From UHGV virus genome UHGV-0236300: a DNA stretch of 64,000 nucleotides, one strand, 5' to 3'. A program made the translations under genes and the position numbers. Positions 13,851-60,701 of this stretch are shown here, in pieces. The notes under the pieces are model-generated. The model was given only the letters and a program-made list of their open reading frames with translations, searched no databases and was not told the DNA's origin. This stretch comes from a virus. Position 1 is the first letter of the stretch; each line of letters begins with the position of its first letter.

Positions 13851-14276
13851 ATGATTTATGAAATGCCAAAACTGATTCGTGACGATGCACGAAACGCCCA
13901 CACCTTTATTATGGGCAAGCGCATGGATATTATTTGTCACAAAGACTTCTGGGAAGGGAGCTACTTCACAGAATATTTTGGAAAAATGGATGATGGCCTA
14001 CTGATCCAGTTTTACACCGATGCGGAAAACAACATTAGTTGGGAGTTCGAGACCGAAGATATCCATAAACTTTTCACCTTCCTTGGTATTAAGATTAAGG
14101 CCAAGTTTGAAGAGGGAGAGTGCGACGATTGTGGATTTTATGAGGTAACAGATTTCTATCTTCCGAGCGGTAAAAACCTTTACTATGAAAGCCACTTCGG
14201 TAACTCCAATATGCCACAGTGCTGGACTGAGTTTTTTGAAATTGTGGAAGAGGAGCTGGAATATCGTGATTATTGA
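13851..14276 (+). CDS. hypothetical protein
   Basis: 141-aa ORF, RBS CTGGAGA. Confidence 0.5.
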   Translation: MIYEMPKLIRDDARNAHTFIMGKRMDIICHKDFWEGSYFTEYFGKMDDGLLIQFYTDAENNISWEFETEDIHKLFTFLGIKIKAKFEEGECDDCGFYEVTDFYLPSGKNLYYESHFGNSNMPQCWTEFFEIVEEELEYRDY

Positions 14277-14724
14277 TACTGTAGAGGGAGATTTAATCTC
14301 CCTTTTTAAGAGCGGTGCTGGTCACCTGATCCACGGTTGTAACTGCTTCCACACAATGGGTAAGGGTGTAGCAAAACAGATTGCCCGTGAGTTCCCTCAA
14401 GCATTGGAAGCTGATAAAATGACTATGCACGGTTGCCTAAGTAAACTGGGCGCGTTCTCCCGCTGGGAGCACTTATCTCCGAGAGGTATTGTCTACGGAA
14501 TAAATCTGTATACTCAGTTCTACCCAGGGCCTAATGCTGAATATTTCTCAATACTGAAAGGATTTGAGCGAGTCAATGAAGTATTTGAGGGGTCGATTTT
14601 ACCATTCTACATCCCTAAGATCGGGTGCGGCATAGGCGGTTTGAAGTGGGAACATGTAGAGGACATTATTAACCTTGCCACTTTTGATATAGATATTATC
14701 GTGGTGGAGTACAAAGAGTGTTGA
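14266..14724 (+). CDS. macro-domain protein (ADP-ribose binding/hydrolase family)
   Basis: LIHGCNCFHTMGKGVAKQIAREF resembles the macro-domain Gly-rich ADP-ribose site; IPKIGCGIGGL resembles the second macro motif; GTG start 14266 after AGGAG, overlapping upstream stop. Confidence 0.6.
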   Translation: MIIDTVEGDLISLFKSGAGHLIHGCNCFHTMGKGVAKQIAREFPQALEADKMTMHGCLSKLGAFSRWEHLSPRGIVYGINLYTQFYPGPNAEYFSILKGFERVNEVFEGSILPFYIPKIGCGIGGLKWEHVEDIINLATFDIDIIVVEYKEC

Positions 14725-36600: not shown

Positions 36601-36885
36601 CTACCAGGTCACTGTCAAGTAGGCAACTGTGTTATTTTTCTCCGGGGAGATGCCAACAACATCCACCCGCAGACCTCCTGCCCTCAAATCCCCAACGATG
36701 TGTGGGAAGTAGTCTGAGAGGTGTGATGGAAGATTTATCGAAAATCCGCATCCCAGAAAGCCTGCTAACGCCTTATTTTGTATCTCCCCTACAATCGCAT
36801 CATAAATGGAGTTAAGCTCGTCAGGGAGAGTTACAGGACGTTTTAGCGCTAACTGGTGCAACTTGTCCTTAGCACTCATTTTCAT
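36601..36885 (-). CDS. hypothetical protein
   Basis: ATG overlapping stop of upstream MTase gene. Confidence 0.45.
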   Translation of the reverse strand: MKMSAKDKLHQLALKRPVTLPDELNSIYDAIVGEIQNKALAGFLGCGFSINLPSHLSDYFPHIVGDLRAGGLRVDVVGISPEKNNTVAYLTVTW

Positions 36886-37415
36886 TTCAAGTCTGCCTCC
36901 GGAGGTGCCAACCACATAAATGGTGGTAGGTCTAAACGGTTCTTCTTGTCCCACACAAAATATGCATATGCTTGCCCGTCAGTTCTGCCATTAGATTGGA
37001 ATGATGGACGCTTAGATATTGTGATCACAGTGGTAGGGGCATTATCAAGCCACCATTCAAATCTGGCCTTGCTTTCCAGAAAATTAAGACGCAAAAGCAT
37101 AATAACTACGTCAGCATCTTTCAACGCCTTGTCCACAAACTCACGAGCCAGGCTGTACGGCGGGTTGGTGATAATACAGTCAACATGGTTGTATTCCGTA
37201 TTCAGATAGTCAACACCTTCTTGGATTTCTCCCCATGCAGATCCTAACGGCATACGGGAGTAGAATACACCTGAGGCGCTATTCCTGCAAGGCTCCAAAT
37301 AGGTCCAATCTTCTGGGAACGGAATGAGGTTATACAACCCTTCTGCACACCACTCTGGTGTCACATATTCATCATAGGCGTTACGTTGTTCGTCAGGTTT
37401 TCTAGCACAAGTCAT
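36882..37415 (-). CDS. DNA methyltransferase (NPPY-type, N6-adenine or N4-cytosine)
   Basis: Catalytic motif IV IITNPPYS; RBS TGGAGAT. Confidence 0.65.
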   Translation of the reverse strand: MTCARKPDEQRNAYDEYVTPEWCAEGLYNLIPFPEDWTYLEPCRNSASGVFYSRMPLGSAWGEIQEGVDYLNTEYNHVDCIITNPPYSLAREFVDKALKDADVVIMLLRLNFLESKARFEWWLDNAPTTVITISKRPSFQSNGRTDGQAYAYFVWDKKNRLDLPPFMWLAPPEADLK

Positions 37416-38988: not shown

Positions 38989-39777
38989 TTACTCGGAAAC
39001 AGGGGTCCAAATATGATTTGCACGATCCTCAATGAGATTGAGTGCAATCTGACGACCCAACCCGGAACGAACAACATCGTCTGGACTATCAAAGCTGATC
39101 ATTCCGACCTCAGGATCTGGATGGCGAGTAAAGAAATCCGTAACCCACGCAAGGCCAGATTTACCAGGAATGTCACGTTGGCTGTTATCGCCCATAATTA
39201 CAAGGGTTGCCTGATCAGAGATCCTTGTGATGATTGACAACATCTCTTCAGGGTTGGTTTGCTGTGCTTCATCAATAAGGACAAAGCATCGTTCATCAAA
39301 ACTACGACCACGAATGCTTTCAACCTCACAAATCTCGATACGGCTGTTCTGACCATCCCCAAGCATTGCTGCAAAAGCACCTTTGCCGACACGTTTGCAA
39401 ATCGTGTCCATCATACTGCGAAGGTAAGGCCACAGTTTCTGCATTGCATTTCCAGGTTTAAATCCTGAAGTCTTTCCTGTTTGAACGTAAGGGCGTGCAA
39501 CAATGATCTTATCAATCTCGTTCTTACGCAAAAGATCACCTGCATATGCGGATGCCATGAATGTCTTACCGGATCCAAACACACCGTTTACAATAATAAT
39601 CTTACGCGATCCTAGATAATCAAGATACTTTTGCTGCTTTTTGTTCATTGGTCTAAGAGCTGGAGCTGTGTGCTCTCGTTCGTCAGCAAATTTCTCAGCA
39701 GCCTTACGCAGGCGATCAGATTTGCGAGCCTCTCTGGCTTCATCACGCATGCGTTTTGTTTCTTTAGCTCGACCCAT
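38989..39777 (-). CDS. phoH: PhoH-like ATPase
   Basis: Walker A GVFGSGKTF; VLIDEAQQ; GDNSQRD; RBS AAAGGAG. Confidence 0.8.
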   Translation of the reverse strand: MGRAKETKRMRDEAREARKSDRLRKAAEKFADEREHTAPALRPMNKKQQKYLDYLGSRKIIIVNGVFGSGKTFMASAYAGDLLRKNEIDKIIVARPYVQTGKTSGFKPGNAMQKLWPYLRSMMDTICKRVGKGAFAAMLGDGQNSRIEICEVESIRGRSFDERCFVLIDEAQQTNPEEMLSIITRISDQATLVIMGDNSQRDIPGKSGLAWVTDFFTRHPDPEVGMISFDSPDDVVRSGLGRQIALNLIEDRANHIWTPVSE

Positions 39778-40276: not shown

Positions 40277-40338
40277 TTGGCACCTCCTCTGCTTTCATTA
40301 TGATAATTATAACCAACTTATCAAAGCTTTGTCAACGA

Positions 40339-40812
40339 TTAGTCAACCTGAACCCAACCGCCTGCTACCTTTTTAAACATTCTTTGGTTATCGCTGCCTC
40401 GGAATGGTTTCTTTGTTGGTAAATCTTTTACATACTTTCCATCAATGACGATATCAGCCAGTTTAAGAACATCACTAGAGATATGCTCAAATGTGAACCC
40501 AGTATACACAAGAATAGTTTTCTTGTCACCAAACTTTTCCTTAATTCTCCTCATAAGGTCTATAATACCTGGCTCATTATAAGGAGCCAAAGGCTCTCCA
40601 CCAAGTAAAGAAATACCGCATACAGATTCATTGTCTAAATCCGACAAAATTTTCTGCAAATCTTCTTCGGTGAACTCCCTTCCTTTATCTTTTGACCAAA
40701 ATGCTTGATTAAAGCAACCAGGACAAGCGTGTGGGCACCCAGATACCCACAAAGCTGTCCTAATGCCTGGCCCCTCGGTGTAAGATATCTCTGTATACCC
40801 GACAATATTCAT
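40339..40812 (-). CDS. nrdG: anaerobic ribonucleotide reductase activating protein (radical SAM)
   Basis: CPHACPGC cysteine cluster; T4 NrdG-like length; start taken at MNIVGY. Confidence 0.8.
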   Translation of the reverse strand: MNIVGYTEISYTEGPGIRTALWVSGCPHACPGCFNQAFWSKDKGREFTEEDLQKILSDLDNESVCGISLLGGEPLAPYNEPGIIDLMRRIKEKFGDKKTILVYTGFTFEHISSDVLKLADIVIDGKYVKDLPTKKPFRGSDNQRMFKKVAGGWVQVD

Positions 40813-40925
40813 ACGTACTCCGCATCGCATTTAGGACAATGCCAAATAAAATCGTCCAGTGCCTTACACCAACGAAGATTGCAATGACAACCACACTTGC
40901 AAATTTTATAAATACCTGTAGACAT
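40809..40925 (-). CDS. small Cys-rich zinc-ribbon protein (38 aa) between nrdD and nrdG
   Basis: RBS AGGAGG 6 nt before ATG; MSTGIYKICKCGCHCNLRWCKALDDFIWHCPKCDAEYV; stop overlaps nrdG start (ATGA). Confidence 0.5.
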   Translation of the reverse strand: MSTGIYKICKCGCHCNLRWCKALDDFIWHCPKCDAEYV

Positions 40926-40988
40926 ATTGCACCTCCTAGTTTACTGTGTGACAACAATATGCCACATCCTTGTGACTTTTGTCAAGTA

Positions 40989-43109
40989 TCAGCAACCACA
41001 ACTTCCGTAGTGCTTAACCCGTTCTATAACCTCAGCCTGCTTACCCTTATTGTAAGGGCGGGAGTTTGGACTAGACAGATACCCGGATACGCGTCTGATC
41101 ACACTGATCGTTCCTTCTTCATGGTTTCCACACTCTGGGCATACAAAGCCTTTAGCTGTTGCACTGAACTCGCCAGAGAATCCACACTTAAGACATTTAT
41201 CCACAGGCTGGTTAATACCAAAATACATAATGTGTTTATACCCGAAATCGACAAGAGCTTCTAAAGCATCTAAGTTGTTTTTCAGGTTAGGTGTTTCTAT
41301 GTATCCAATGTTGCCGCCAGAAGAGATCATAGCAAAACCTTCCTCATACTTCCACTTGTCAAAAGGTGAGCTATTGATCCACACGGGTTGGTGGAAACTG
41401 TTGGTAAGGTATTCGTGCTCGTGCTTCAACACTTCAGGATATTCACGATCTAGACATGTTGCAGCCTTATAGCACAAGCTCTCTGAAGGAGTGCCGTACA
41501 AGCTGAATGCCAGACCACTTTCTTTTTTGTACCGATCACAAGCATCTTTCATGTGTTGAAGGATCCCAAGAGCTAAGGACTTGTCTCCCTCTCTGCCTAA
41601 AATCTGGCAGGTTTCATACACACCAATATACCCAATACTTATGGAAGCATACCCGTCATAGAAGAGTTTATCAATACTCTCTTCAGGATCCAGGCGAGCA
41701 AGGGCCCCTTCACACCACATGATGGGGTTCTGCCCTGCCTTTGTTCCTTTTAGACGGTTAACTCTTACAAGGTGAGCCTCGTATGCCAGATCCAAGTACT
41801 CGTCAAGAACTGCAAAGAAATCAACACCTTCCGTTTTAGCTTTTGCCGCAATCATTGGTAGGTTAAGGCTAACAACACCCAAGTTGAATCTGCCAAGGTA
41901 TTTTTCATCACCCTCCGAGGTAACGTATTTGCCAAGGAACGACCTACATCCCATGCTTGTTACTTTGCCATCTGTTGAACCTGTCACTTTACGATTTAGC
42001 GGAACAGAAACAAAGTCAGGATAAATCCGCTCTGCAGAGCATTCTAGGGCCAATCGTTTCAAATCATAGTTAGGATCCCCAGGGTTCATGTTGACACCAT
42101 CTTCTAAGAAGAACAGCACTTTAGGGAACACAGGCGTGATCCGTTCTTCACCAAGACCCATTTTGTGGACTTTCAAGTAGTTTTTGGTAATCATTCTACC
42201 AAAGACCGAAGTATCCAGCCCTAAACTTAATGTGATGAATGGGGTTTGCCCGTTGACAGAAGTTAACGTATTGATTTGGTAGAGCAAAGTTTGCATACTA
42301 TCAAACACGTCTTTATCGGTCATTTGCATTGCAACAGTCTCAGCATCTGGCAACCAATGTTCCTGACAAAATTTAAGGTTCTTCTCATAAGTTGCTTCAG
42401 CATATTGTGCCAGATAATGATCAATATGGCTCATAGTTTGACCACCATATTGAGCACTAGCTACTGCACTAGAGATTTGACTAAGGATTGTTGTTGCAAC
42501 CCCTATTGACTTCGGCTTACTGACATGGGCGTTGCCAATGTTGAATCCGTTTTCCAGCATATCCGGATAATTTACCAAACAACAGTTTGTTAACGGACTG
42601 ATCAGGTAGTCAAGATCATGCACATGGATGAAGCCCTTGTTGTGCTCTTCTGAGACACGATCTGGCAGGATCTGTGTTGATGCAAGGTGTTTGCTAAGGA
42701 TGCCTGCAAGCAGGTCACGATGAGTGTGTACATGATTAGTAGGCTTATTTGCGTTTTCTTTTGTAAATTCATCACAAGTACGATCCAAAAAGCCACTAAT
42801 ATCTGCAAGCAGTTTTCCACCTGCCTCTCTGTTATTATCTCTTGTCTGTCTATACTGGATGTATTCTCTGGCTGCACATTTTAAACCCATATCCATAAGA
42901 GCATCTTCAACAAGGATATGGATATTTTTTACAGAGATCGTGCACTGGTCGGTTGGCAGATTGTTGGCAACAACTTCATTAACCGCGCAGGCAATCCGGT
43001 AAGCTTCTTCTTCAGTATGCCCAGACTCAAGTAAGGCGGACTCTGCCGCCTTGATCACCTTAATTCCGTTATAAAACTCTTCTCTACCGTCCCGTTTTAC
43101 AACTTTCAC
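40989..43109 (-). CDS. nrdD: anaerobic ribonucleoside-triphosphate reductase
   Basis: Collinear with T4 NrdD as recalled; C-terminal Cys cluster and glycyl-radical-like RRVSGYL; GTG start overlapping upstream stop. Confidence 0.85.
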   Translation of the reverse strand: MKVVKRDGREEFYNGIKVIKAAESALLESGHTEEEAYRIACAVNEVVANNLPTDQCTISVKNIHILVEDALMDMGLKCAAREYIQYRQTRDNNREAGGKLLADISGFLDRTCDEFTKENANKPTNHVHTHRDLLAGILSKHLASTQILPDRVSEEHNKGFIHVHDLDYLISPLTNCCLVNYPDMLENGFNIGNAHVSKPKSIGVATTILSQISSAVASAQYGGQTMSHIDHYLAQYAEATYEKNLKFCQEHWLPDAETVAMQMTDKDVFDSMQTLLYQINTLTSVNGQTPFITLSLGLDTSVFGRMITKNYLKVHKMGLGEERITPVFPKVLFFLEDGVNMNPGDPNYDLKRLALECSAERIYPDFVSVPLNRKVTGSTDGKVTSMGCRSFLGKYVTSEGDEKYLGRFNLGVVSLNLPMIAAKAKTEGVDFFAVLDEYLDLAYEAHLVRVNRLKGTKAGQNPIMWCEGALARLDPEESIDKLFYDGYASISIGYIGVYETCQILGREGDKSLALGILQHMKDACDRYKKESGLAFSLYGTPSESLCYKAATCLDREYPEVLKHEHEYLTNSFHQPVWINSSPFDKWKYEEGFAMISSGGNIGYIETPNLKNNLDALEALVDFGYKHIMYFGINQPVDKCLKCGFSGEFSATAKGFVCPECGNHEEGTISVIRRVSGYLSSPNSRPYNKGKQAEVIERVKHYGSCGC

Positions 43110-43384
43110 TTTTTCTCTCCAAAACCATTCTTAACAAAAGAGATGAAATCGTCAGCACCACCTATGTGGAGACTGTCAAGGTTGCTTTCCAAGAAGATCT
43201 GAGGCAACGTTCTAGGAACAAATGGGCTACACTTCTCGATAAGCTCTTCTTTTGTGTATCCTTCACCCAGCGTCTTGTATACGAAAGGTATGCCTTTGCT
43301 GACTGCAAATTCTTTTGCTCTTACACAATGTGGGCAGTTATCCTTGCCGTAAATGATGATGAAAAAAGATTTTTCGCAGCTCAT
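43106..43384 (-). CDS. glutaredoxin/thioredoxin-like protein (T4 NrdC-like)
   Basis: Redox motif CPHC; HIGGADDF segment. Confidence 0.75.
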   Translation of the reverse strand: MSCEKSFFIIIYGKDNCPHCVRAKEFAVSKGIPFVYKTLGEGYTKEELIEKCSPFVPRTLPQIFLESNLDSLHIGGADDFISFVKNGFGEKK

Positions 43385-43387
43385 ATA

Positions 43388-44476
43388 TTAAAACTCCCAA
43401 ATTTCTTCTTCAGCGTCGTTAACAGTTGTGTTGACGCGGTAGTCAGTGTTAGACATTTCCTGGTTAGCCGTCTGTTGCAGTGAAGGTTTCATCCACACCT
43501 GCATAAACGGTAGCGGGTCTTTTGTTGGCGGCACAAAGTCTTTGTCGATATTGTAGTAATCATAAATCGGTGAGCAGTTATAGTCAACCCATTCTTTAAG
43601 TAATGGTGAGTTAAGACCTATAATTGCTCTTCCTTCGCTGAAAATATAGTCACTCCAACCGTACTCCTTGATTCGCACTTCGTCAAGAATTTCTTTTAAC
43701 TCACCCTTAATCTCAAGAAAGCTTTGCTCCCATGCAGGGTCATCAAGCAGGATATCGATGATAGCAAAATCACCTTTCGAATGCAGCATTTCATCAAGCA
43801 TAATTTTTTGAACGAGTTGTGCAACTTGAACAAAAATACCTTGCTCAGCTACTGCGAACGTACATGCAAAACTTGCAATAAACTCAATACTCTCTAGAGC
43901 TAAAAGTGCAAAAAGTGCTCTAAGGATACATTTCCGTACAACATCTTCTTCAACACTGGAAGGATCCAGTCGGTATTTTGCACCAATAACCTCAAGCTCT
44001 TGCATATATTTGACAATAACTCCAGACCTGCTCAGCACGTTCTGGTTTTCCTGAATCTCTTCTATAATCTCACGAGCATTAGGAAGGCATTGTCTAACAA
44101 TCTCTGAGTAAGTTAGTGCATGAAGAACCTCAATCTCAGACTGCTTCATCAACAAGGTGAAAAGTTCACTATTGGTGATAAATGGTGAAAACAGACAAAT
44201 GATAGATCTTGCTGCAACACTGTCTGCCTCCCATTGCCACATCAGTGTCTGCACCATCACATCGTAAGTTGACTTTGAGCATGTTACGAAATCCGAAATA
44301 GACTGTGACAGATCTACTTCGTCCTCTGCCCAATCTTGTTCTTTTTGTTTTTTGTATAGTTCAAACAGCTGTGGGTACTTTTTGTTAATAGAGTCGTACA
44401 TCCCCATCTGCTGTCCTAAAAACAGTGGATAATCACCAGTTTTATGAGCAGTGTTCTCAGTATTAAATACAGCCAT
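43388..44476 (-). CDS. nrdB: ribonucleotide reductase class I beta subunit
   Basis: Ferritin-like E..H pairs (EIEVLHALTYSE, DEMLH); start at MAVFNTEN after AGAGGTAG. Confidence 0.8.
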   Translation of the reverse strand: MAVFNTENTAHKTGDYPLFLGQQMGMYDSINKKYPQLFELYKKQKEQDWAEDEVDLSQSISDFVTCSKSTYDVMVQTLMWQWEADSVAARSIICLFSPFITNSELFTLLMKQSEIEVLHALTYSEIVRQCLPNAREIIEEIQENQNVLSRSGVIVKYMQELEVIGAKYRLDPSSVEEDVVRKCILRALFALLALESIEFIASFACTFAVAEQGIFVQVAQLVQKIMLDEMLHSKGDFAIIDILLDDPAWEQSFLEIKGELKEILDEVRIKEYGWSDYIFSEGRAIIGLNSPLLKEWVDYNCSPIYDYYNIDKDFVPPTKDPLPFMQVWMKPSLQQTANQEMSNTDYRVNTTVNDAEEEIWEF

Positions 44477-44488
44477 TATTCTACCTCT

Positions 44489-44510
44489 AAAATGGGGCCG
44501 AAGCCCCTTT
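44489..44510 (-). terminator. intergenic hairpin between nrdA and nrdB (partial terminator or stability element)
   Basis: GGGGC TTCG GCCCC flanked by A-run and T-run. Confidence 0.4.
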
Positions 44511-44516
44511 TTTAAA

Positions 44517-46832
44517 TTACAGTGCACAACTTTCGCAATATGGATCTTCAACTGAACTATCTGCAATCAAAGGATAGTTCTTTCTGGTTTCATCTTCAGC
44601 CTGTTTCTTCGCGTGAAGCTCCTCTGTCAAAGAGTCACCAGCACCAACCCGAGAGTTTAAGTAATACCATGTCTTCATCCCGAATTTAGTAGCACGGATA
44701 AGATACCCCAGCTGCTCCTTCATTGAAATTTTACCATCTTTCAACTTGGTGTAATCAATATATAGGTCAGCACTGATTGCCTGTCCTGTGAATTTTTGAA
44801 TCACAGCATACATATCAATCATGTCGTTAGTATCAACGTCCCAAGCCGAGGTATAATACTCTTTCAGTTCATCATATTCAGGAACGATAAACAGCACCTG
44901 TCCTTGTGGCGACTTTTTAAAGATAATGTGCTCACGGACAGGATAAACCCCGTTAGTGGTGTTTGTTGCCAGCGAAGAGCTTTCATTAGGCATATATGCT
45001 TCAAGAACGCTATTACGTAGCCCACCATTTTCAATGATTTCTTTACGTAACCCTTCCCAATCCTGCTTAAGAGAAGGATCTTTCACCACACTATCGACCT
45101 CTTTGTTATAGGTGTCGATTGGTAACCAACCATCCGGGTATTTTGTTTTATGCATCCACTCACAGACACCACGCTCTTTTGCCAATCGTAAACTTGCCTT
45201 ATGCAAGCTGTAGCTGTGGAGCTCTGCAAGATCGTGAACAAGCTGTTTACTTTCAGGAGACCCGTAAGCAACCTTGTGGCTGGCAATAAAATGTGCAACA
45301 TTGGTAAGGCCAACCCCGATGGATCTGCGTTTTTTAACAGTGCTCTCCATATTTTCATACGGATATGTCATGATTTCCATAACATTGTCAATCATAAGCA
45401 CAGTGTAGTATGCAACATCCTCATACTCCTCTGGGGTAACCCTTCCAGCTACAAGAGATGACAGGAAGCACAATGCAACTTCGCCATCATCAACATCGTA
45501 CTTGAAGATATTACGCATATCTGAATAGCCTTTTGTCGGGAGGGCTATTTCTGCACACAGGTTACTTGAATAGATCACATCTTTAAAAGGTGTATGTCTA
45601 TTCATCTCATCTGTCCAGTATACGTACAGCCTGCCAACCTCGGTACGCTGCGTGATCAGTTCAACAGCAAGGTCTCTAGCACGGATCCATGTTTTAGGAA
45701 TGCTGTCATCTTTAGCAATACGATCAACCTCTGCATCAAACTCCTCCATAGACATGGTGAAGATACCCTCATGCAGTTGAGGCGCGTGCTTATAAGAAAC
45801 AAGCATCCAATCTAAATTCTTAGCCACACGGTTGATAAACGACCTATTAATACCTATAGAGTAATCCATGGTGTTGATTCTTTTTGAAGCAACAGTCATA
45901 GGGTTTCTCAAACGGATTAGCTCATCAATCTGCGGGTCCAGTGCAAGGAATGATACTGTTGCAGAACCGCCACGTGATTGTTGTCTGTTCTCCTTAACCC
46001 CAGCATCAATACCTCGATAATATGGAATCTTGCCCATATGTTTAATAGTGTTACCACGAACACCATCACCTGCAGATCTTGATGATAAATAGTATCCAAT
46101 ACCTGCTTGGTTAACCGTCATTGTGTATGCAACTTCACGTGCCACACCAATAGATTTTGCTGTATCGTCAGCTTTTATTACACAACAAGATGCATACCCT
46201 GTCTTGCCTGTGCGTAGACCGTTTAAGTACGGTGTCGGGGCATTGATCTTTAAGTCTGACAGATAAGTGTATAATTTTACAACATCGTCAATACGGCGTT
46301 CTTTCGGCATATTTTTCATGACAGCCATCGCTATCCCCATAAACATCATCTGTGGAGATTCGAACAGGGTGTCTTTAAGAGTATCCTTGATCCCGTATTT
46401 GTCTCGAAACTGTTTAAGGACTGCATAGCCATAACCAAGGTCTTTACTGTGATCAATAACAGTGTCTAAAGTGTTTAACTCGGTAAAGCTATAACCCATA
46501 TCCTCCCAATACCCTTTATCAACCATGGTATTGTAAAATGATGGTAAGGAAGGGATCTTTGTGAATCCTCCAAAAGCCTCTTTATAAATCTGACCGATAA
46601 GAACACGACCAGCCATACGAGAATGTGCTTCGTCCTTACGGCTAACACAGGAGTCTATAATAGCTTGGTTAACTTCTTTGGTTGTGCATCCATCATACAG
46701 CCGTTTGTATGCATCAAGTGCAATATGTGACCAATTGCCGTTACCGTCGTCACCGAAAATAGCTGCCTTATTTAAACGTTCCGGATCGAATGCCACTTCA
46801 CATCCGTTGCTTTTAATTACCTTAGTGATCAA
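44517..46832 (-). CDS. nrdA: ribonucleotide reductase class I alpha subunit
   Basis: Active-site NLCAEIALPT; C-terminal CESCAL; TTG start after GGAGGA, overlapping upstream stop. Confidence 0.85.
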   Translation of the reverse strand: MITKVIKSNGCEVAFDPERLNKAAIFGDDGNGNWSHIALDAYKRLYDGCTTKEVNQAIIDSCVSRKDEAHSRMAGRVLIGQIYKEAFGGFTKIPSLPSFYNTMVDKGYWEDMGYSFTELNTLDTVIDHSKDLGYGYAVLKQFRDKYGIKDTLKDTLFESPQMMFMGIAMAVMKNMPKERRIDDVVKLYTYLSDLKINAPTPYLNGLRTGKTGYASCCVIKADDTAKSIGVAREVAYTMTVNQAGIGYYLSSRSAGDGVRGNTIKHMGKIPYYRGIDAGVKENRQQSRGGSATVSFLALDPQIDELIRLRNPMTVASKRINTMDYSIGINRSFINRVAKNLDWMLVSYKHAPQLHEGIFTMSMEEFDAEVDRIAKDDSIPKTWIRARDLAVELITQRTEVGRLYVYWTDEMNRHTPFKDVIYSSNLCAEIALPTKGYSDMRNIFKYDVDDGEVALCFLSSLVAGRVTPEEYEDVAYYTVLMIDNVMEIMTYPYENMESTVKKRRSIGVGLTNVAHFIASHKVAYGSPESKQLVHDLAELHSYSLHKASLRLAKERGVCEWMHKTKYPDGWLPIDTYNKEVDSVVKDPSLKQDWEGLRKEIIENGGLRNSVLEAYMPNESSSLATNTTNGVYPVREHIIFKKSPQGQVLFIVPEYDELKEYYTSAWDVDTNDMIDMYAVIQKFTGQAISADLYIDYTKLKDGKISMKEQLGYLIRATKFGMKTWYYLNSRVGAGDSLTEELHAKKQAEDETRKNYPLIADSSVEDPYCESCAL

Positions 46833-47059
46833 TTTGCTTCCTCCACTTCATCAACGTATTTATCAAGGCAGGTATCAGTATCTTGTTGGGTAAAGGTATC
46901 CTCTTCTACAGAGATATTTATAATTTTACCTGTATACTCGTCATAATAAACATCATCATACATTTTAATATCGTTTGTCAGGCCATTGAACCAAAGCCAA
47001 CCAACATATTCTGCCCGACTTGCAAAACCAAGATCCTTCCACTTGGAGTTATGACTCAT
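46829..47059 (-). CDS. hypothetical protein
   Basis: ATG after AAGGTGG. Confidence 0.45.
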   Translation of the reverse strand: MSHNSKWKDLGFASRAEYVGWLWFNGLTNDIKMYDDVYYDEYTGKIINISVEEDTFTQQDTDTCLDKYVDEVEEAN

Positions 47060-47069
47060 CTTCACCACC

Positions 47070-47531
47070 TTAGCTTTCAATACCGAATAATTTTTCCAGG
47101 AGATGCAGATCTTCAAAATTGAAAGGTTCATCAACAATATGAATATCTTCAGCCTTTTCAGATTGTTTTGTATACTTTCTTACATTAACACGATCTTCTA
47201 CAGGGATATCATATGGAAGATCTTGAACAAGCATTGTCTCACCGGGTGCTTTATCTACATCGAGAATATCTACACCATTATACATTTGTGGGTATCTAAA
47301 GTCTGCACGCATGACACCAGCAAATACATCGGCCTTTCGATAATGAGTTGGTTTATTTTTGCATCTAACGTTTTTTCCACGAAGAACATCAATATTTTTT
47401 AAATCAAACCCTACGGCAAAGAGTGCAGCTCGAAGACCGTTTCGTGTGCGAACGTTAAACCCGGGAACGGTAGATAGGAAATCTAAAGTAACTGAAATAA
47501 ATGTCTTTTTAGGAATCATAACATCACTCAT
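47070..47531 (-). CDS. hypothetical protein in nucleotide-metabolism cluster
   Basis: ATG after AAGGGAGA; no confident motif match. Confidence 0.45.
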   Translation of the reverse strand: MSDVMIPKKTFISVTLDFLSTVPGFNVRTRNGLRAALFAVGFDLKNIDVLRGKNVRCKNKPTHYRKADVFAGVMRADFRYPQMYNGVDILDVDKAPGETMLVQDLPYDIPVEDRVNVRKYTKQSEKAEDIHIVDEPFNFEDLHLLEKLFGIES

Positions 47532-47629
47532 ATCTGTCTCCCTTTCTGGCTCACCAACAAAGTGAGCCACTATTATAGATTATCTAATGCTATTAGTCAA
47601 CACAAAAGTTACCTATCGCTGTGATAGGC

Positions 47630-48613
47630 TTACCCTTTCATGAAGTGGTTATTAAGCAACTGTCTGTGCTGAACCCACCCACAAAAGTTGGCAGACCAGA
47701 ATTTACCATCGCGGTCTTGATGGGTTACACCTTCCTGCCAAACACAACTATCTTGTGTGATTTCACATGAAGACAGGTAGTAGTTTAAACGTTCCATTGC
47801 ATTGTCGTGATCCATAGGTGTCGCCTGGTGCTCGTAAGGGCTTGCATGAATACGATCCCCACCAATCAATTTTTTAGCCACACTATCTGCTTTTTCAAAC
47901 GTGCTGTCAATATTGCGATAAGATACTTGTGCACAGCAGCTCGCACTAATAGATAGAGCTTCTCCAGTATCGAGAATGCATAGCTTCCCTTCTGTGTCAC
48001 GCACAGCATAGTTAAACTCACCGTCCAAATAAACGTGTTCTACATATGGGGTGTGCCATTGACCTGGTTTAAGGACTTCAGGAGTGCTATTCACAAGAGC
48101 CTCCCACATACAATTAGCCAACATCTGAATCGTAGGATCCGCATCGTGCCAGCAACGGAGGTGGAAAAAATTATTCCACTCGGTGCTTGTTACAACTGTT
48201 TTCATGCGTTGAAAAGGTTCCACTAAGCGGTTACATACTTGCTTATGGTAACCAGCAAGGGCGAACTTCTCTGCATGCCAAGCGGCGTTTTTTGCAGCTT
48301 CTTTCCAAAACTCTTCAGGAGTCAGCTCCATGTCAGTGTATTCTACACGGATCTTTTGATCGTGTTCCCCACCATCTTCCATCCCTCGCTTATTTACACC
48401 GAAGCGAACTGGCATTGCCGGATTCTCCACGATCTGCTGCAGCATCTTGCTGACAGGTACTGCACGAGAAGACATAGCGTTTCGGCTGAACACTCGATGT
48501 GTCATAAGCTCTGAGTGAATAATTCGAGGATATTCTAGCTCAAAAGTGGTGATACGCTTACCTTTCTCGGAAATGCTGTCGGCAATAATCTTTGCAGTGC
48601 ACAGTTTTAGCAT
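47630..48613 (-). CDS. thyX: ThyX-like flavin-dependent thymidylate synthase (divergent)
   Basis: ThyX-type signature THR-x7-SSR (ELMTHRVFSRNAMSSRAV); RBS CAAGGAGAG. Confidence 0.55.
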   Translation of the reverse strand: MLKLCTAKIIADSISEKGKRITTFELEYPRIIHSELMTHRVFSRNAMSSRAVPVSKMLQQIVENPAMPVRFGVNKRGMEDGGEHDQKIRVEYTDMELTPEEFWKEAAKNAAWHAEKFALAGYHKQVCNRLVEPFQRMKTVVTSTEWNNFFHLRCWHDADPTIQMLANCMWEALVNSTPEVLKPGQWHTPYVEHVYLDGEFNYAVRDTEGKLCILDTGEALSISASCCAQVSYRNIDSTFEKADSVAKKLIGGDRIHASPYEHQATPMDHDNAMERLNYYLSSCEITQDSCVWQEGVTHQDRDGKFWSANFCGWVQHRQLLNNHFMKG

Positions 48614-48813
48614 TATTTAGCTCTCCTTGTTTTAATTTTGGAAATTTCGTCTGGGTTTATGTTGGCCTTAAATGCAAGGTATCTGTTGAACATATCGGAG
48701 CACATATCTTGGGTGATCCTAGAGGCATACACCAGCTTACCACCCAGATCATACACCTCTAGCCAGTCACCGTATCTGACTACAGGATCGCCACCCTTAG
48801 AACATCTGCCCAT
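48613..48813 (-). CDS. hypothetical protein
   Basis: RBS GAAGGTA; ATGA-coupled. Confidence 0.45.
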   Translation of the reverse strand: MGRCSKGGDPVVRYGDWLEVYDLGGKLVYASRITQDMCSDMFNRYLAFKANINPDEISKIKTRRAK

Positions 48814-48814
48814 T

Positions 48815-49408
48815 TCAAATACCTTCTAAAAACTTCCCTATTTTATACCAGCTGTTAGCGGTATAGTCAACACTAACCTTCAACTCCTCGAATTGCTCAT
48901 AAGGAGTGTCTTTTAAGATTTTAATAACTTCAGGGCGTGAAGCGAATTGGTTCAGGTATTCATGCCTGTCGTCAATTATAACATCTACAGCCACATTACC
49001 TTTGAAATGTGTGGCGTAGAAGCCGTGACCCTGGGTGTGATCGTCCAGATCCATAAAATCGCTGGTCCAACGCTTTAAGAACCTTGATTTAGATGCAAGG
49101 TGACCTTTCTTGCATACAGAGATAAATGCAAGCTTGTGACCACGAGCCACCAAATCTTTCATAACCTCAATAGCCCCCTCTTCAGGCTTAAGAAAGTCGT
49201 AGAGGAACGGGTCACTCCAGAAATCAAAAGGTCCTATGATGTTTTCTTTGGGGCGATCAGGCCAATACTTTGACAGATCGTAATACATCAGCCCGTTAGA
49301 AGGTTTAGCAACTGTCTTGCTGGCTGGACCATATAAACGCTCTAGCCACTCCCACCATGCTGTTCCTGAGTCTACCAGTGTTAAATCTACATCAATTCCG
49401 ATCAGCAT
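48815..49408 (-). CDS. HAD-family hydrolase, likely 5'(3')-deoxyribonucleotidase
   Basis: HAD motif I GIDVDLTLVD (DxDxT); later IIDD; RBS AGAGGT. Confidence 0.6.
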   Translation of the reverse strand: MLIGIDVDLTLVDSGTAWWEWLERLYGPASKTVAKPSNGLMYYDLSKYWPDRPKENIIGPFDFWSDPFLYDFLKPEEGAIEVMKDLVARGHKLAFISVCKKGHLASKSRFLKRWTSDFMDLDDHTQGHGFYATHFKGNVAVDVIIDDRHEYLNQFASRPEVIKILKDTPYEQFEELKVSVDYTANSWYKIGKFLEGI

Positions 49409-49413
49409 TGTTC

Positions 49414-50016
49414 TCAGACCTCTTTAGCATCAATATACTTGCACACAATCTCAGATGCGCACTCCCAAGGAGACCCCTCAGGGTTAACAACATCAAACTC
49501 GATACCTTTTATCCCGTTCTTCTCTAGGCTAAGGTAAGTTCTGGAATCATTCCCCCAATCATACCCTGCACGGTGGATACGGAACAGTAGAAGATCACCA
49601 CCTGTGCTGTATGCGTACTCGCCAAGGCATGCCAGCTCCTCTTTGAAGCCACCATCGGAGTAAACAACAACCCCTTTACCTTCAGGGAAATCTTTCTTCA
49701 AGGATGCTACTGCGGCCTTACCGAAAGCGTCTTCACCAAAGATAGGTTTAATCAGATTTTCACTACAATGGATCATCCATTCTCGCGGAGAAACATGCTT
49801 GCCGTCTATCATTAAGAACGGGCACGGTTCTTCTTTGTAGCGGCGATCATAGAGTGCATTCCACAACTGTGGTGAAATACCAGCTGCCTTAATTGCCACA
49901 CTGAATAGCATTTCCTTTACCTCGCGGTGATGCGAGTTTGGAATGGCTTCCAACAAAAGATCTGCGATATGGTCTTTTCCAGAACTTGGTGGAGCATTAA
50001 GAACAATAATATCCAT
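49414..50016 (-). CDS. deoxynucleoside monophosphate kinase-like protein
   Basis: P-loop variant SSGKDHIAD as in T4 gp1 (RSGKDTTAD); RBS GGAGG. Confidence 0.5.
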   Translation of the reverse strand: MDIIVLNAPPSSGKDHIADLLLEAIPNSHHREVKEMLFSVAIKAAGISPQLWNALYDRRYKEEPCPFLMIDGKHVSPREWMIHCSENLIKPIFGEDAFGKAAVASLKKDFPEGKGVVVYSDGGFKEELACLGEYAYSTGGDLLLFRIHRAGYDWGNDSRTYLSLEKNGIKGIEFDVVNPEGSPWECASEIVCKYIDAKEV

Positions 50017-50207
50017 TAAAAACCTCCGTGGTATTCTTCAACTGCATCAATAATACTTTTACACTTATCTACCAGCTCGTTAGCCACTACAGCATCGTCT
50101 TCCCAAACAGCCTCCTCAATCTGGTCAAGCAGTGATCGCATCTTTCCCATCATTTCTGGAATAAAGCTTTCTGAAAAGCTGTCTGGGATTGTTAACTCTG
50201 GTGTCAT
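50016..50207 (-). CDS. hypothetical acidic protein
   Basis: ATG after GGAGAC. Confidence 0.45.
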   Translation of the reverse strand: MTPELTIPDSFSESFIPEMMGKMRSLLDQIEEAVWEDDAVVANELVDKCKSIIDAVEEYHGGF

Positions 50208-50677: not shown

Positions 50678-51469
50678 CTATAGATCATACCTGGTCTCCA
50701 AAATGTATTGTAGTTCTTTCTTGCCTATACTCTTCATTCCAGCAGTCTTACCTGCTTCTTCTTGAAAAGAAGAATAGCATTCAGCAAACACTCTGTCAAC
50801 ACCGTCAACTAAAGATTTTATGAAATATGTTGATTCTTCAGATTTTGGGTCATCATCCCCCAATACTTTTCCAGCATTATACCCAACACGTCTTATGCAG
50901 AAGTCGTAGTCATCTGGTGTACTAAAAGAAAATAGCTTATTCTCCCCAATCTCTACAGGATCCCTATTGCACACCTTTTTCTCCCAAATTTGGAAAACAC
51001 ATGGCACGTCATAAGGTTTGCCGTTGAGTAAAAACGAGTTCTTGGGGCACCTTTCACTGTAAATAAGGTGCATCGACATGTCCAGTTTGTTTGCAAAAAA
51101 TATTTTTTCAAATGTCCGTGGCAAGATGAAGGCTATAGCCCCACCAGGCTCTAGCAATGATGCGCAGTGGTTAAAAAACTTGCAAGCTAAAGACGAATTT
51201 TTGCCGAATGGGGGATTACCTATGAAGACATCAGCCTTAGGGTACACCTCTAAGAAGTCTGCCTTAATACACGGTGTTGGGCCTTCAAATTCAGGATCTG
51301 GTACCAAATCGTACGACAGTATCTCTGAAAATAGTTTTGAAAAAGAACCCTTTCCAGCAGAAGGCTCAACGTATGCACAACTCCCATACTTACCTTTTAC
51401 TTTACCAACAAGATATTCTGCATACTCAGGGTCTGTGTAATATTTGTCGTTGGACTCTTTCTTGCTCAA
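50678..51469 (-). CDS. DNA N6-adenine methyltransferase (NPPF-type)
   Basis: Motif I VEPSAGKGSF; motif IV IGNPPFG. Confidence 0.7.
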   Translation of the reverse strand: MSKKESNDKYYTDPEYAEYLVGKVKGKYGSCAYVEPSAGKGSFSKLFSEILSYDLVPDPEFEGPTPCIKADFLEVYPKADVFIGNPPFGKNSSLACKFFNHCASLLEPGGAIAFILPRTFEKIFFANKLDMSMHLIYSERCPKNSFLLNGKPYDVPCVFQIWEKKVCNRDPVEIGENKLFSFSTPDDYDFCIRRVGYNAGKVLGDDDPKSEESTYFIKSLVDGVDRVFAECYSSFQEEAGKTAGMKSIGKKELQYILETRYDL

Positions 51470-51477
51470 AGTGCCTC

Positions 51478-51510
51478 CAAAAATGAAAAGGGAGGCGCAA
51501 GCCTCCCTCT
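51478..51510 (-). terminator. rho-independent terminator
   Basis: Minus-strand hairpin GGGAGGC/GCCTCCC then TTTTCATTTTT. Confidence 0.6.
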
Positions 51511-52511: not shown

Positions 52512-52733
52512 TTAGTAAAACTGAAGAATGTCTTTTAAAGCGAAGTCACGATATTCGCCCTTGTCTACATCAAATGCATGCATCAACCACTGATCTTCTT
52601 TATGATAATCTGTAGAGCCAAACCATAAACTAGGCTCAGTAACGCAGCGATCTGCAACAACACCTTTCCAGTTACGGTATTTCATCCTGATCAGAACTGA
52701 ATCGCAAGGATTGAATACCTTTTTCATCTCCAT
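52512..52733 (-). CDS. hypothetical protein
   Basis: 73-aa ORF. Confidence 0.4.
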   Translation of the reverse strand: MEMKKVFNPCDSVLIRMKYRNWKGVVADRCVTEPSLWFGSTDYHKEDQWLMHAFDVDKGEYRDFALKDILQFY

Positions 52734-53277
52734 AGAAATCTCTCTCCTCAGTTTTCTTTATAAACTCCTGCATGTAGGCCTCAATAGCCTCATGCTTGGT
52801 ATACTCTGAATTAATGACAAGATCTAGATCCGATTCTGCCCGTGCAATAATCGTAGCTTTAGAGCATCTCCTCAAGAACTTTGTCATATCGTCCCTGTAG
52901 TTTTTGTGGAGCGGGAAGTCGCTGTAGTCTTTCTCCAGATAGTCAGCCATCCGGCGCAACGCCTCTGATAAACTGCAATCTGTATACTCGTTACAGTATT
53001 TCATCCAGTATTTAAGCACATACCCCTCAAAGGTATTAGTGCATTGGGACAAAACACCCCTGCAACGACCAGTCAGATGATCATGATCTAAACAAGGCTT
53101 ACGAAGTGGTTCGCACAAGATCGGATCAAGACCATCCTGCTCTTCTGACAATTCTTTCCGAAAGTTAGCTATGTCCTTAGAATCTTTTAGCCACCCGCTA
53201 TGAACGGGGGCTTTGACAGCTTTCTTTCTTATTTTACGCTTTGCGATAATCCCTCCAGATGCGCCCTGCCTATCCAA
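52672..53277 (-). CDS. endonuclease VII-like (His-Me finger) nuclease
   Basis: CLDHDHLTGRCRGVLSQCTN matches T4 endo VII catalytic core (HDH...GxxRGxLCxxCN). Confidence 0.6.
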   Translation of the reverse strand: MDRQGASGGIIAKRKIRKKAVKAPVHSGWLKDSKDIANFRKELSEEQDGLDPILCEPLRKPCLDHDHLTGRCRGVLSQCTNTFEGYVLKYWMKYCNEYTDCSLSEALRRMADYLEKDYSDFPLHKNYRDDMTKFLRRCSKATIIARAESDLDLVINSEYTKHEAIEAYMQEFIKKTEERDFYGDEKGIQSLRFSSDQDEIP

Positions 53278-55677: not shown

Positions 55678-55968
55678 TCAAGACTTTTTAGTCTTTCTTG
55701 GAGAGCCTTTTGTTGATCTTTTCCTTTTGTGGTAGATTCCAAGTGCGGCGTTTTCTTGGGCGCACGTTTTAACAGTTCTCAGACAAGAACTTTCAGCTTT
55801 AGGCAGGTTTAACTCCCACCAACCAAGCCAGTAAAGTTCTGATTCAGACAATTGCTCAGATTCAGCCTTCCGATACAATGATTGCATACCTCTGATAATG
55901 TCGTCCAGAGGCGTATCAAATACAAAAGCTGTCTTATCGAATTTCTCTTTTACAGGTTTCTTAGCCAT
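55678..55968 (-). CDS. hypothetical basic protein
   Basis: RBS GAGGGT. Confidence 0.45.
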   Translation of the reverse strand: MAKKPVKEKFDKTAFVFDTPLDDIIRGMQSLYRKAESEQLSESELYWLGWWELNLPKAESSCLRTVKTCAQENAALGIYHKRKRSTKGSPRKTKKS

Positions 55969-56425
55969 CAAGGTAACCCTCTATCCACGAAAAGTCAGTC
56001 TTCCATTCCGGAACTTTACTAAGCTCACGCCACTCTGCAAAGCAGTCTCGGTAATACGCCTCTGCCATACCCTTGGTGATCTTATTCACCTTAGCCAACT
56101 GATTAACTGCCTGAGCATACTTTCCACGGATATTTGCTAACCCAGGATGCACCGATGTGTGACAATCTGGGCACAACGCTATCAGTCCGACAAGCCGGAT
56201 CACTCCCTCTTCGAAAGTGTAAAGTTCATGACACTCCACCGGATGTTTGCTGCCTTTACCGCCGCACACCTCACAAGTATAGTTGGCTTCTCTGTAGCAC
56301 TTCTTACGGATCTTATCCCACTCACTCTTCTTCACAGCGTTTCGGAGATTATTATACCAAGCTGTCTCTGGGATCAGCTGTACAATAAGCCTGCGTTCAG
56401 ACTTCATTAAACGTCCGTCTTCCAC
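55961..56425 (-). CDS. HNH-family endonuclease (free-standing)
   Basis: CEVCGGKGSKHPVECHELY ... LCPDCH (paired Cys plus His/Asn). Confidence 0.55.
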   Translation of the reverse strand: MEDGRLMKSERRLIVQLIPETAWYNNLRNAVKKSEWDKIRKKCYREANYTCEVCGGKGSKHPVECHELYTFEEGVIRLVGLIALCPDCHTSVHPGLANIRGKYAQAVNQLAKVNKITKGMAEAYYRDCFAEWRELSKVPEWKTDFSWIEGYLDG

Positions 56426-59211: not shown

Positions 59212-59925
59212 TTAAATATATTCTGTTACATCCTTGAAGCTTGAAGGCTTCATAATCTTACCTTTACTGTCGAGGAATATGATAACTTTATTTCCGTTGT
59301 AGAATTCTTCTTTAGCAACAAAACCTTCATAGCGACCATCAAAGCGTCGCTCAAGATCTTTAATCTCCAACTCGATGAGTTGTTCAGCAGGCATATCTGC
59401 ACTGGCACCGTGTGAATGCCGCAGATGGTTGACACGTGCAAACTTGCTGTCATTAGATTTTAGAACCTTCCGCATCATCCCGCACACATCACCGCGAAGC
59501 TGGAACAGTAAAGCCGTTGACAGCTCTGCTAAGCGGTAAGCAGACGCTCTTTGCTTAGAGGTATTTTTCGCAGCGATCAGTGTATCATAAAATTCACCGA
59601 TCTTAAACTTAAGACCTCGCGGATTATCAAACAGGTTTGACCACTTTTCATGGTTATCGTTAACAAGATAAGCGGCATAACTTGTGACAACGTGAAGATC
59701 GCAGGCCTCTTTTAGGAGATGATCCCCACCATCACCTTTCTCCAACTCTTCCAAAACTTCATTGAACTCTTCCTCAATGAAACTCAGCTGAAGTTCGAAT
59801 GGTGTGTATGATTTTTTCACTTTAGCTGCTACACGGTTCCAATTTTCCACCCAGTTGGCAGACCAAAGGTAGTTTTCAGGCTGAGACAGTTTTTCCAGGT
59901 TGTCGATCAGTTTAGTATTCAGCAT
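59212..59925 (-). CDS. MazG-like nucleotide pyrophosphohydrolase domain protein
   Basis: IEEEFNEVLEELEKGD...LLKEACDLHVV matches the MazG EExxE...D...E..D core; RBS GGAGG. Confidence 0.55.
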   Translation of the reverse strand: MLNTKLIDNLEKLSQPENYLWSANWVENWNRVAAKVKKSYTPFELQLSFIEEEFNEVLEELEKGDGGDHLLKEACDLHVVTSYAAYLVNDNHEKWSNLFDNPRGLKFKIGEFYDTLIAAKNTSKQRASAYRLAELSTALLFQLRGDVCGMMRKVLKSNDSKFARVNHLRHSHGASADMPAEQLIELEIKDLERRFDGRYEGFVAKEEFYNGNKVIIFLDSKGKIMKPSSFKDVTEYI

Positions 59926-59939
59926 TAAAAGGCCTCCGC

Positions 59940-60701
59940 TTACAGTTCCATAAAGTTTTCTACGATGTCAATAAATGTTTTATCAGAGAAAGCGTCAACC
60001 GCCCCGTTAAACCAAACTGGGATGCCGCGATCCTCATACTGGTAAATGTCACTACGTGAAATGCCATTCTCCCCTAAATGCTGTGAGTCGTATTTGTTGA
60101 CGATCAGCAGTTTGGTTCCCTTATTACAGGCAGGGAATAGCTCCCAGTTAAAATTGATAACTGTGTTGGAGCACCCTACAAGGATAACCATATCATTGCT
60201 CGTCAGAGAAGTCAACAGGTCATACATGTCTGTATACTTTGGAGCTACTTCTCCGAAAAACACTACATTAGGCTTAACCCAAGTATACTTGCTTGCGTCT
60301 ACCTCAGAGTATCCAATGTCTTTAATGACGTCACTCCCTTCATCATCCTCGTAGACTATTTCTGGCAAATATCCGTGGACATGTAAAATATCTTCATGTT
60401 TTACACCAGCACGCTCCAGCAAATCATCTACATTGGTTGTCAGGTTGATCACACGACCAGACCAGCGTGAATACCACTCAGCGATCCGGAGATGTGCAAG
60501 GTTAGGATCAACACTGCCCAAAGCTACACGCCGTGCATTGTAAAAGTCATGCACCTTATAGTAGTTCTTGGCAAAGGTGTGGATGTTACACACCTCATCG
60601 ATGCTGAAATTCTCCCACATTGCAGTGCCACCAGATCGGAAAGTGGGGATACCAGATTCAGCGCTCAAACCAGCACCGGAGATAATGATCAGTCGTCGCA
60701 T
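59940..60701 (-). CDS. Sir2-family (sirtuin) NAD-dependent deacylase / ADP-ribosyltransferase
   Basis: GAGLSAESGIPTFR, TTNVDDLLERAG, catalytic His in LHVHGY, VVFFGE, ILVGCSNTV; no obvious Zn-ribbon cysteines; RBS GAGGA. Confidence 0.8.
   Translation of the reverse strand: MRRLIIISGAGLSAESGIPTFRSGGTAMWENFSIDEVCNIHTFAKNYYKVHDFYNARRVALGSVDPNLAHLRIAEWYSRWSGRVINLTTNVDDLLERAGVKHEDILHVHGYLPEIVYEDDEGSDVIKDIGYSEVDASKYTWVKPNVVFFGEVAPKYTDMYDLLTSLTSNDMVILVGCSNTVINFNWELFPACNKGTKLLIVNKYDSQHLGENGISRSDIYQYEDRGIPVWFNGAVDAFSDKTFIDIVENFMEL

Follow-up and report, generated by a model that had tools for sequence, protein, structure and literature searches.

A THR-type ThyX with an apparently rearranged segment order in the nucleotide-metabolism module of an rV5/FV3-like coliphage

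Positions 40339 to 50016 of a 64,000-nucleotide stretch of UHGV virus genome UHGV-0236300 (the whole stretch is hereafter the window) hold a run of genes for deoxynucleoside triphosphate (dNTP) synthesis, among them aerobic and anaerobic ribonucleotide reductases (RNR) and, at 47630-48613 on the minus strand, a protein resembling the flavin-dependent thymidylate synthase ThyX. A preliminary description of this locus noted that the protein carries THR in place of the RHR of the ThyX signature and is long for its family, and proposed that, together with four methyltransferases, it may point to a non-canonical nucleotide being made. Does the locus make an unusual product, or does an unusual enzyme serve an ordinary one? 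That interpretation is partly supported: the description of the genes and of an atypical ThyX was right, and the exotic nucleotide found no support. We consider it probable that the locus is the standard Vequintavirus nucleotide-metabolism module, supplying canonical dNTPs for phage replication, and that its ThyX departs from the usual form in architecture but not demonstrably in what it makes. The module itself has already been catalogued; new here is a widespread phage ThyX with a rearranged segment order and without three hallmark residues of the flavin site.

Fold and segment order of the ThyX-like protein

The ThyX-like protein (327 amino acids [aa]; phrog_85, 1e-112) passes the Pfam Thy1 (PF02511) cut-off of 24.8 with 38.5 bits, matching profile positions 60-190 only, and scores 40.3 bits with TIGR02170 over profile positions 60-208, short of the equivalog cut-off of 87.9. 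Searched as a single sequence with phmmer it matched no PDB chain, and a profile search of the PDB returned only marginal matches to Thermotoga maritima ThyX (E ~0.3); because these sequence searches were weak, structure prediction and profile-profile comparison were relied on. An AlphaFold2 model (pLDDT, the predicted local distance difference test, 81; predicted TM-score 0.79) was compared with the PDB using Foldseek, and the top 50 matches were all ThyX or PolB (4p5a), with a probability of ~1.0, a best E of 2.6e-4, identities of 12-18% and a target TM-score of ~0.5. On the evidence of this model, the protein is predicted to have the ThyX fold. The catalytic core was placed by hhalign and the Pfam and TIGR profiles at residues 20-185 (48059-48556, minus strand), with R129 and R153 equivalent to T. 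maritima R147 and R174, and in hhalign against a Thermotogae ThyX alignment residues 21-198 align to T. maritima residues 61-213. Fold and colinear core are shared with canonical ThyX (T. maritima TM0449, PBCV-1 A674R; PF02511, TIGR02170).

The order of the remaining segments is not the canonical, colinear one. Only 19 residues precede the core of the native protein, against ~60 in canonical ThyX, and the native N-terminal 200 residues gave no match to canonical residues 1-62. The homologue of canonical N-terminal residues 21-59 (T. maritima 'LSAVRAARVSF...HETPFEH'), which bind flavin adenine dinucleotide (FAD) and folate, was located at residues 222-262 (47828-47950, minus strand; 'ISASCCAQVSYR...HASPYEH'), behind the core. 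This match scored 30.5 in hhalign (E 3.5e-5), ~8.7 standard deviations above 200 column shuffles (mean 10.4, standard deviation 2.3, maximum 17.7; reversed control 11.6), and the HxxPxEH motif was in register. When residues 186-262 (or 214-262) were moved in silico ahead of residues 20-185, the re-ordered protein matched Thy1 without a break over positions 15-190 (55.5-56 bits; native 38.5), and with TIGR02170 it reached 57.8 bits over positions 20-208 (native ~40). Scores stayed at 38-41 bits over positions 60-190/208 for the unaltered protein, for its core by itself and for a control in which residues 263-327 had been moved to the front. Variants meant to tell a true circular permutation from a transposed segment, with either native strand 6-15 or strands 192-205 taken as canonical beta1-beta2, all scored alike, at ~56 bits over 15-190. 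Together the comparisons show a ThyX in which the N-terminal helices and HxxPxEH follow the core, with ~100 extra residues, an arrangement that explains both its length and its poor scores with curated models. The remark in the preliminary description that ~327 aa is long holds by those ~100 residues against canonical ThyX and fails within the protein's own clade, where homologues of ~313-347 aa are found among the matches listed.

The apparent rearrangement could instead be an alignment artefact, in which case the protein would be a ThyX of ordinary, colinear order whose N-terminus has diverged and whose C-terminal extension is unrelated. Foldseek sequentially aligns up to 227 columns with PBCV-1 ThyX, and pLDDT is just 58-67 across residues 220-260, the rearrangement being known from sequence and not from three-dimensional placement. 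An artefact would nevertheless have to account for a segment score far beyond the shuffle maximum with its motif in register, for two independent curated models whose matches run through the junction uninterrupted and gain ~17 bits, where a control segment moved to the front gains none, and for a native protein with just 19 residues ahead of its core and no match to canonical residues 1-62 in its first 200. We judge it very unlikely.

A second, degenerate 'W-V-Q-H-R' at residues 313-317 (47667-47681) resembles the canonical W76-F-R-H-R80, a hint that the C-terminal WxQHR may be the remnant of a tandem duplication behind the rearrangement. A partial tandem duplication was tried as the origin and rejected, the alternative hhalign match being weak (14.2, E 0.11) and reached by 3 of 150 shuffles.

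Active site and distribution of the THR-type clade

In translation the motif region (48464-48502, minus strand) reads T38-H39-R40...S48-S49-R50-A51, bearing out the THR of the preliminary description: RHRX7S is replaced by T38-H39-R40-x7-S48, the first Arg having become Thr and the remainder being kept. T38 is invariant among 31 homologues (55-82% identity) and is conserved too in clade members at 34-55% identity. Compared with T. maritima ThyX, H79 and R80 are conserved as H39 and R40, the deoxyuridine monophosphate (dUMP) ligands S88, R90, R147 and R174 as S48, R50, R129 and R153, and H53, E58 and H59 as H256, E261 and H262; the FAD/folate motif H256-A-S-P-Y-E261-H262 is thereby conserved, but at a non-canonical chain position. 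In profile alignments of the clade the equivalents of S88, R90, R147, R174, H53, E58 and H59 are invariant or nearly so. Replaced across the clade are R78 (T38), E86 (A46), Y91 (A51), R165 (T144) and H178 (D157). In canonical ThyX, as a review of its structures sets out, the Arg that opens RHR is hydrogen-bonded to the isoalloxazine ring and helps to keep dUMP in place, the Tyr covers uracil C5 and flavin N5 as a lid, and the FAD phosphate is bound by the Arg corresponding to R165 (PMC6514825); neither the Tyr lid nor the FAD-phosphate Arg is present here, their places being taken by A51 and T144. Residue by residue, then, the dUMP site is intact and the flavin site remodelled, and H187 (in 'WHxPY'), N309 and R317, which are clade-invariant in the added segments, are candidates for compensation.

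The colinear, 236-aa ThyX of Aeromonas phage 2L372D (MK804893.1, L005:3783-4493) has K-H-Q for R-H-R ('LGKHQSGFSWNERSMRY'), so RHR is not invariant in phage ThyX even without rearrangement.

THR-type long ThyX was found by tblastn in 1,036 phage records, 983 of them full length, and with so wide a distribution neither THR nor the length is peculiar to this phage. Members at 34-55% identity occur in Vibrio phage ICP1, Pakpunavirus, DFL12phi1, Cellulophaga phiST, Flavobacterium Fpv3, phiCbK-like Ccr29 and N4-like Bp4, the last annotated as similar to N4 gp30. The proteins of Bp4, ICP1 (gp193), Pakpunavirus, Ccr29 and phiST have the architecture, THR, SSR(A), HASPxEH and the N309/R317 positions in common with the window ThyX, whereas their neighbours vary: the gene adjoins RNR genes in Pakpunavirus, Cronobacter phage CR9 and Ccr29, and in N4-like phages it follows dCTP deaminase at a distance of two to four genes. 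In roseophages (Rhodovirinae) thyX and dcd share their distribution and show purifying selection (dN/dS 0.18; PMC11934525). RNR and dCTP deaminase as neighbours fit the conversion of dUMP to thymidine monophosphate (dTMP).

The literature searched held no description of the rearranged order, the missing hallmark residues or the structure of this clade. One survey that used the RHRX7S motif tolerated up to two mismatches (PMC2826268), and surveys demanding the exact motif would exclude the clade; the rearrangement and the lost residues explain under-scoring by curated ThyX models and inconsistent annotation. With ~1,000 genomes (N4-like, ICP1, rV5-like), the THR type may be the commonest phage form of the enzyme. 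It offers, in a family pursued as an antibacterial target, a natural test of which residues of the flavin site the enzyme can do without, and is of moderate interest for ThyX enzymologists and annotators. The module, a dNTP-supply cluster already known from a phage genus that has been sampled well, matters little in itself; the interest lies in the ThyX.

The module and its probable product

Positions 46000-50100 are 95-99% identical in DNA to 122 phage records, including FV3, NHEP1 and BASEL phage Bas59 EduardKellenberger, and by this measure the source phage is an ordinary Vequintavirus, an rV5/FV3-like coliphage. Gene content and order of the dNTP module are annotated identically in Vequintavirus relatives, and comparison with the nucleotide-metabolism clusters of rV5, FV3, Bas59 and NHEP1 revealed no substantive difference. 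Among smaller departures, phage HMD-6 (L001:1227-4112) has nrdD as two coding sequences with an HNH homing endonuclease between them, whereas nrdD of the window is intact, and the nrdD annotated in Bas59 is shorter (1911 bp). The curated Bas59 genome has no ThyA, dihydrofolate reductase (DHFR), dCMP deaminase or dUTPase among its annotations anywhere; with no other thymidylate synthase annotated there, the ThyX-like gene is the sole recognisable one. Some relatives are recorded as 'Campylobacter phage' with Campylobacter jejuni as host (MG065652.1, MG065661.1, MG065662.1 and ~20 more; 19-24 records), with 97% protein identity to Escherichia coli rV5-like phages, and these host labels look doubtful.

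The contiguous dNTP-synthesis genes of the preliminary description were confirmed, all open reading frames (ORFs) being present on the minus strand within 40339-50016. Class Ia RNR is represented by nrdA (44517-46832; Ribonuc_red_lgC 7.8e-101, Ribonuc_red_lgN 4e-14) and nrdB (43388-44476; Pfam Ribonuc_red_sm 7.8e-29), which bring the large-subunit barrel and all-alpha domains and the ferritin-like small subunit, with a CxxC glutaredoxin alongside (43106-43384; Pfam Glutaredoxin 2.4e-8, CPHC in translation). The mechanically called nrdB ORF reaches 44566 and relatives annotate a 1089-bp coding sequence, the real start probably being the ATG at 44476. For class III, an intact nrdD (40989-43109; NRDD 5.9e-161, Gly_radical 4e-23, ATP-cone 4e-13), the anaerobic ribonucleoside-triphosphate reductase with its glycine-radical domain, is accompanied by the radical-SAM activase nrdG (40339-40812; Pfam Fer4_12 4.4e-43, Radical_SAM), whose translation shows the CX3CX2C motif as 'CPHACPGC'; here the mechanical ORF reaches 40830 and relatives annotate a 474-bp gene, making 40812 the likely true start.

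Upstream of thyX lie a HAD-superfamily 5'(3')-deoxyribonucleotidase-like gene of the NT5C type (48815-49408; Pfam NT5C, phrog_420) and a kinase-like P-loop gene of the T4 gp1 type (49414-50016; phrog_139, deoxynucleoside monophosphate [dNMP] kinase, 2.6e-43). The NT5C match is marginal (27.1 bits against a cut-off of 24.8), HAD motif I (DxDxT) reads 'DVDLT' at residues 6-10, and PDB sequence searches gave no useful match; the kinase-like protein has a P-loop 'PPSSGKD' in translation and no Pfam, NCBIfam or PDB sequence match. The same functional set is known from T4- and T5-type phages (T4 gp1 dNMP kinase, T5 Dmp 5'-deoxyribonucleotidase, NrdAB/NrdDG), where it channels host-derived and newly made nucleotides into DNA. 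The module differs in having ThyX instead of ThyA and DHFR, in having no dCMP hydroxymethylase or dCTPase, and in a kinase and nucleotidase that are recognisable only via PHROG or a marginal Pfam score.

In the pathway that we propose, NrdAB would reduce nucleoside diphosphates aerobically with the phage glutaredoxin as its likely reductant, and NrdD, activated by NrdG, would reduce nucleoside triphosphates anaerobically, suiting a gut host. The ThyX-type flavoenzyme would convert dUMP to dTMP with methylenetetrahydrofolate and reduced flavin, in which case no DHFR would be needed. The T4 gp1-like kinase would phosphorylate dNMPs, both the new dTMP and those released from host DNA, and the nucleotidase may trim or balance the dNMP pools.

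The four methyltransferases counted in the preliminary description are present as DNA-methyltransferase-like ORFs, two on each strand. On the minus strand are 50678-51469 (phrog_5172 1e-123, phrog_799 [DNA methyltransferase] 8.7e-15; weak Pfam Eco57I and MTS), annotated in relatives as an N6-adenine methyltransferase, and 36882-37415, which is Dam/EcoRI-methylase-like (phrog_799 8.8e-67; weak Pfam Dam and EcoRI_methylase). On the plus strand are 2042-2836 (phrog_757 5.8e-87), annotated in Bas59 as a Dcm-like C5-cytosine methyltransferase, and a short ORF of 149 aa at 314-763 (phrog_67 1.5e-28, partial, profile positions 266-379/743). Membership in DNA methyltransferase families points to post-replicative methylation, and the four enzymes would leave simple N6-methyladenine or 5-methylcytosine marks on replicated DNA.

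Cast as a pathway, the non-canonical nucleotide would arise if the THR-type ThyX made a modified pyrimidine, e.g. 5-hydroxymethyl-dUMP, by letting water capture the exocyclic-methylene intermediate, with the nucleotidase removing dTMP, the kinase phosphorylating the modified dNMP, and the virion base being non-canonical as a result. Loss of the solvent-shielding Tyr and of the first Arg of RHR (A51, T38) is compatible with this, as are the missed TIGR02170 equivalog cut-off and the position of the nucleotidase and dNMP kinase next to thyX, an arrangement also needed by the base-replacement pathway of SPO1-type phages. The pathways of SPO1, ViI, M6 and PaMx11 resemble the module in grouping an enzyme that modifies pyrimidines at C5 with genes for a nucleotide kinase and a phosphatase; they follow a ThyA-family route, however, none of whose enzymes was found in the window module. 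The first enzyme of the known thymidine hypermodification pathways is a ThyA-family dUMP hydroxymethyltransferase, after which post-replicative enzymes act (PMC8989533), and searches of the module with Pfam, PHROG and NCBIfam found neither that hydroxymethyltransferase nor the post-replicative modifying enzymes, while Pfam and PHROG found no glycosyltransferase, 5-HMUDK-type kinase or comparable gene. The folate-binding His (H256) and all dUMP ligands are conserved, the clade occurs in ~1,000 phages of unrelated groups, and its dCTP deaminase and RNR associations are those expected for dTMP synthesis. Vequintavirinae, moreover, are reported by the BASEL study as 'exceptionally susceptible' to restriction-modification, with no effective protection (PMC8594841), and the DNA of the related Certrevirus CB7 is reportedly cut by BglII, SspI, BamHI and ClaI, with a ClaI pattern read as Dam methylation (PMC7344957). 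On this indirect evidence the proposal of a non-canonical nucleotide is left unsupported, by the canonical-type contexts of the clade, by a restriction-sensitive phage group, by methyltransferases that belong to DNA families and by the lack of a ThyA-type enzyme in the module, and we hold it to be very improbable indeed; were it true, altered ThyX chemistry, with 5-hydroxymethyl-dUMP or some other C5-substituted dUMP as its product, would be the first ThyX-based route to modified DNA, in many phages.

A different doubt concerns the substrate: the ThyX-like protein might not be a dUMP methylase for DNA precursors, acting on another uracil substrate (UMP, like PolB, or RNA) or, with catalysis lost, supporting or regulating a complex that makes nucleotides. 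Foldseek did return PolB (4p5a), which methylates UMP and dUMP, several of the residues that contact FAD are replaced, and curated ThyX models score the protein poorly. The counterparts of S88, R90, R147, R174, H53 and E58 are nonetheless invariant even in distant members, which argues for a maintained active site, and the low dN/dS of the clade in roseophages, the lack of another annotated thymidylate synthase in Bas59 and the consistent location of the gene among dNTP-synthesis genes speak for synthesis of DNA precursors; we find such a role very improbable. Several observations do weigh against a ThyX that makes dTMP for an ordinary dNTP supply. Three functionally important canonical residues (the first Arg of RHR, the Tyr lid and the FAD-phosphate Arg) are replaced clade-wide, so that ordinary activity would need compensation by clade-specific residues; even the re-ordered ThyX remains below the TIGR02170 cut-off (57.8 against 87.9 bits); sensitivity to restriction-modification is compatible with a small modification such as 5-hydroxymethyldeoxyuridine; no assay of any member of the THR-type clade was found in the literature searched; and the operon structure rests on consensus promoter and terminator matches whose number is not above chance.

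Small ORFs, transcription signals and other features of the window

Three small minus-strand ORFs accompany the module genes and encode conserved, phage-specific, putative accessory proteins. Two had been described as embedded genes without assignable function, and this stands: profile searches of 46829-47059 and 47070-47531 gave PHROG families of unknown function only, and neither has a Pfam or NCBIfam match. The 76-aa ORF (46829-47059; phrog_5488, unknown function, 3.4e-41) has a stop that overlaps the nrdA start, and phage CR9 has an ORF of equal length (231 bp) at the same position, a likeness of length and position only. The 66-aa ORF (48613-48813; phrog_4903, unknown function, 5.6e-35; no Pfam match) likewise overlaps the thyX start with its stop.

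The 153-aa ORF (47070-47531) is the first gene of the RNR block. Its model (pLDDT 81, with residues 10-100 >90) shows a small alpha/beta domain without a fold match, behind which lie the conserved, basic 'DLPYDIPV..KVNTRKYTK' motif and an acidic tail. The family is small and phage-only, with 9 clusters in a word-indexed search and 22 representatives in an exhaustive profile search of 1.84 billion proteins, and tblastn found the protein in 239 phage records. The gene stays between thyX and nrdA in CR9, and in 2L372D despite the colinear ThyX of that phage. As companions of THR-type ThyX, the 153-aa and 76-aa ORFs are confined to Vequintavirinae-like phages and some phages of Aeromonas. Because the 153-aa gene keeps its place and its product shows no catalytic signature, we guess that the protein serves the RNR/ThyX machinery as a partner or regulator and not as an enzyme; it is a candidate accessory factor of phage dNTP synthesis. 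A 'thymidylate synthase' label attached to the 153/166-aa ORF in KR698074.1 (APECc02), PQ505080.1 (HMD-6) and MK883717.1 (ECP26) has no profile, sequence or fold support and looks like a propagated mis-annotation.

The sole sizeable gap within the module separates thyX from the 153-aa gene. It contains a weak terminator-like stem-loop directly after the thyX stop (47611-47629, minus strand) and a sigma-70-like promoter, TTGACT-17-TATAAT (47572-47600, minus strand; 11 of 12 consensus positions), whose position favours ATG 47531 over GTG 47570 as the start of the 153-aa gene. Two transcription blocks appear to result, kinase-HAD-66aa-thyX and 153aa-76aa-nrdA-nrdB-grx-nrdD-nrdG, with the proviso that promoter- and terminator-like sites in the region are consensus matches not above shuffled expectation. 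Just downstream of nrdG is a promoter matching the sigma-70 consensus at 12 of 12 positions, TTGACA-18-TATAAT (40306-40335, minus strand), and the interval between the exonuclease gene and the methyltransferase gene contains a strong terminator-like hairpin with a 10-bp GC-rich stem and a T-run (51487-51510, minus strand).

Across the window GC skew is positive from 1 to 26 kb and negative from there to 62 kb, with sign changes at ~26000 and ~62000, and the switch coincides with the turn of gene orientation from plus to minus strand. Genes of the HNH and endonuclease VII types are interspersed with the replication genes at 7527-8033 (plus), 55961-56425 (minus) and 52672-53277 (minus); they were recognised by Pfam HNH_3 and Endonuclease_7, relatives carry annotated homing endonucleases, and the genes are likely mobile insertions that vary between related phages. 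Outside the module the window further encodes a nucleotide pyrophosphohydrolase-like ORF (59212-59925, minus; phrog_671 1e-21), a Sir2-like protein (59940-60701, minus; phrog_2162), a macro-domain protein (14185-14724, plus; Pfam 2e-7) and, according to the Bas59 annotation, a PhoH-like ATPase (38989-39777, minus).

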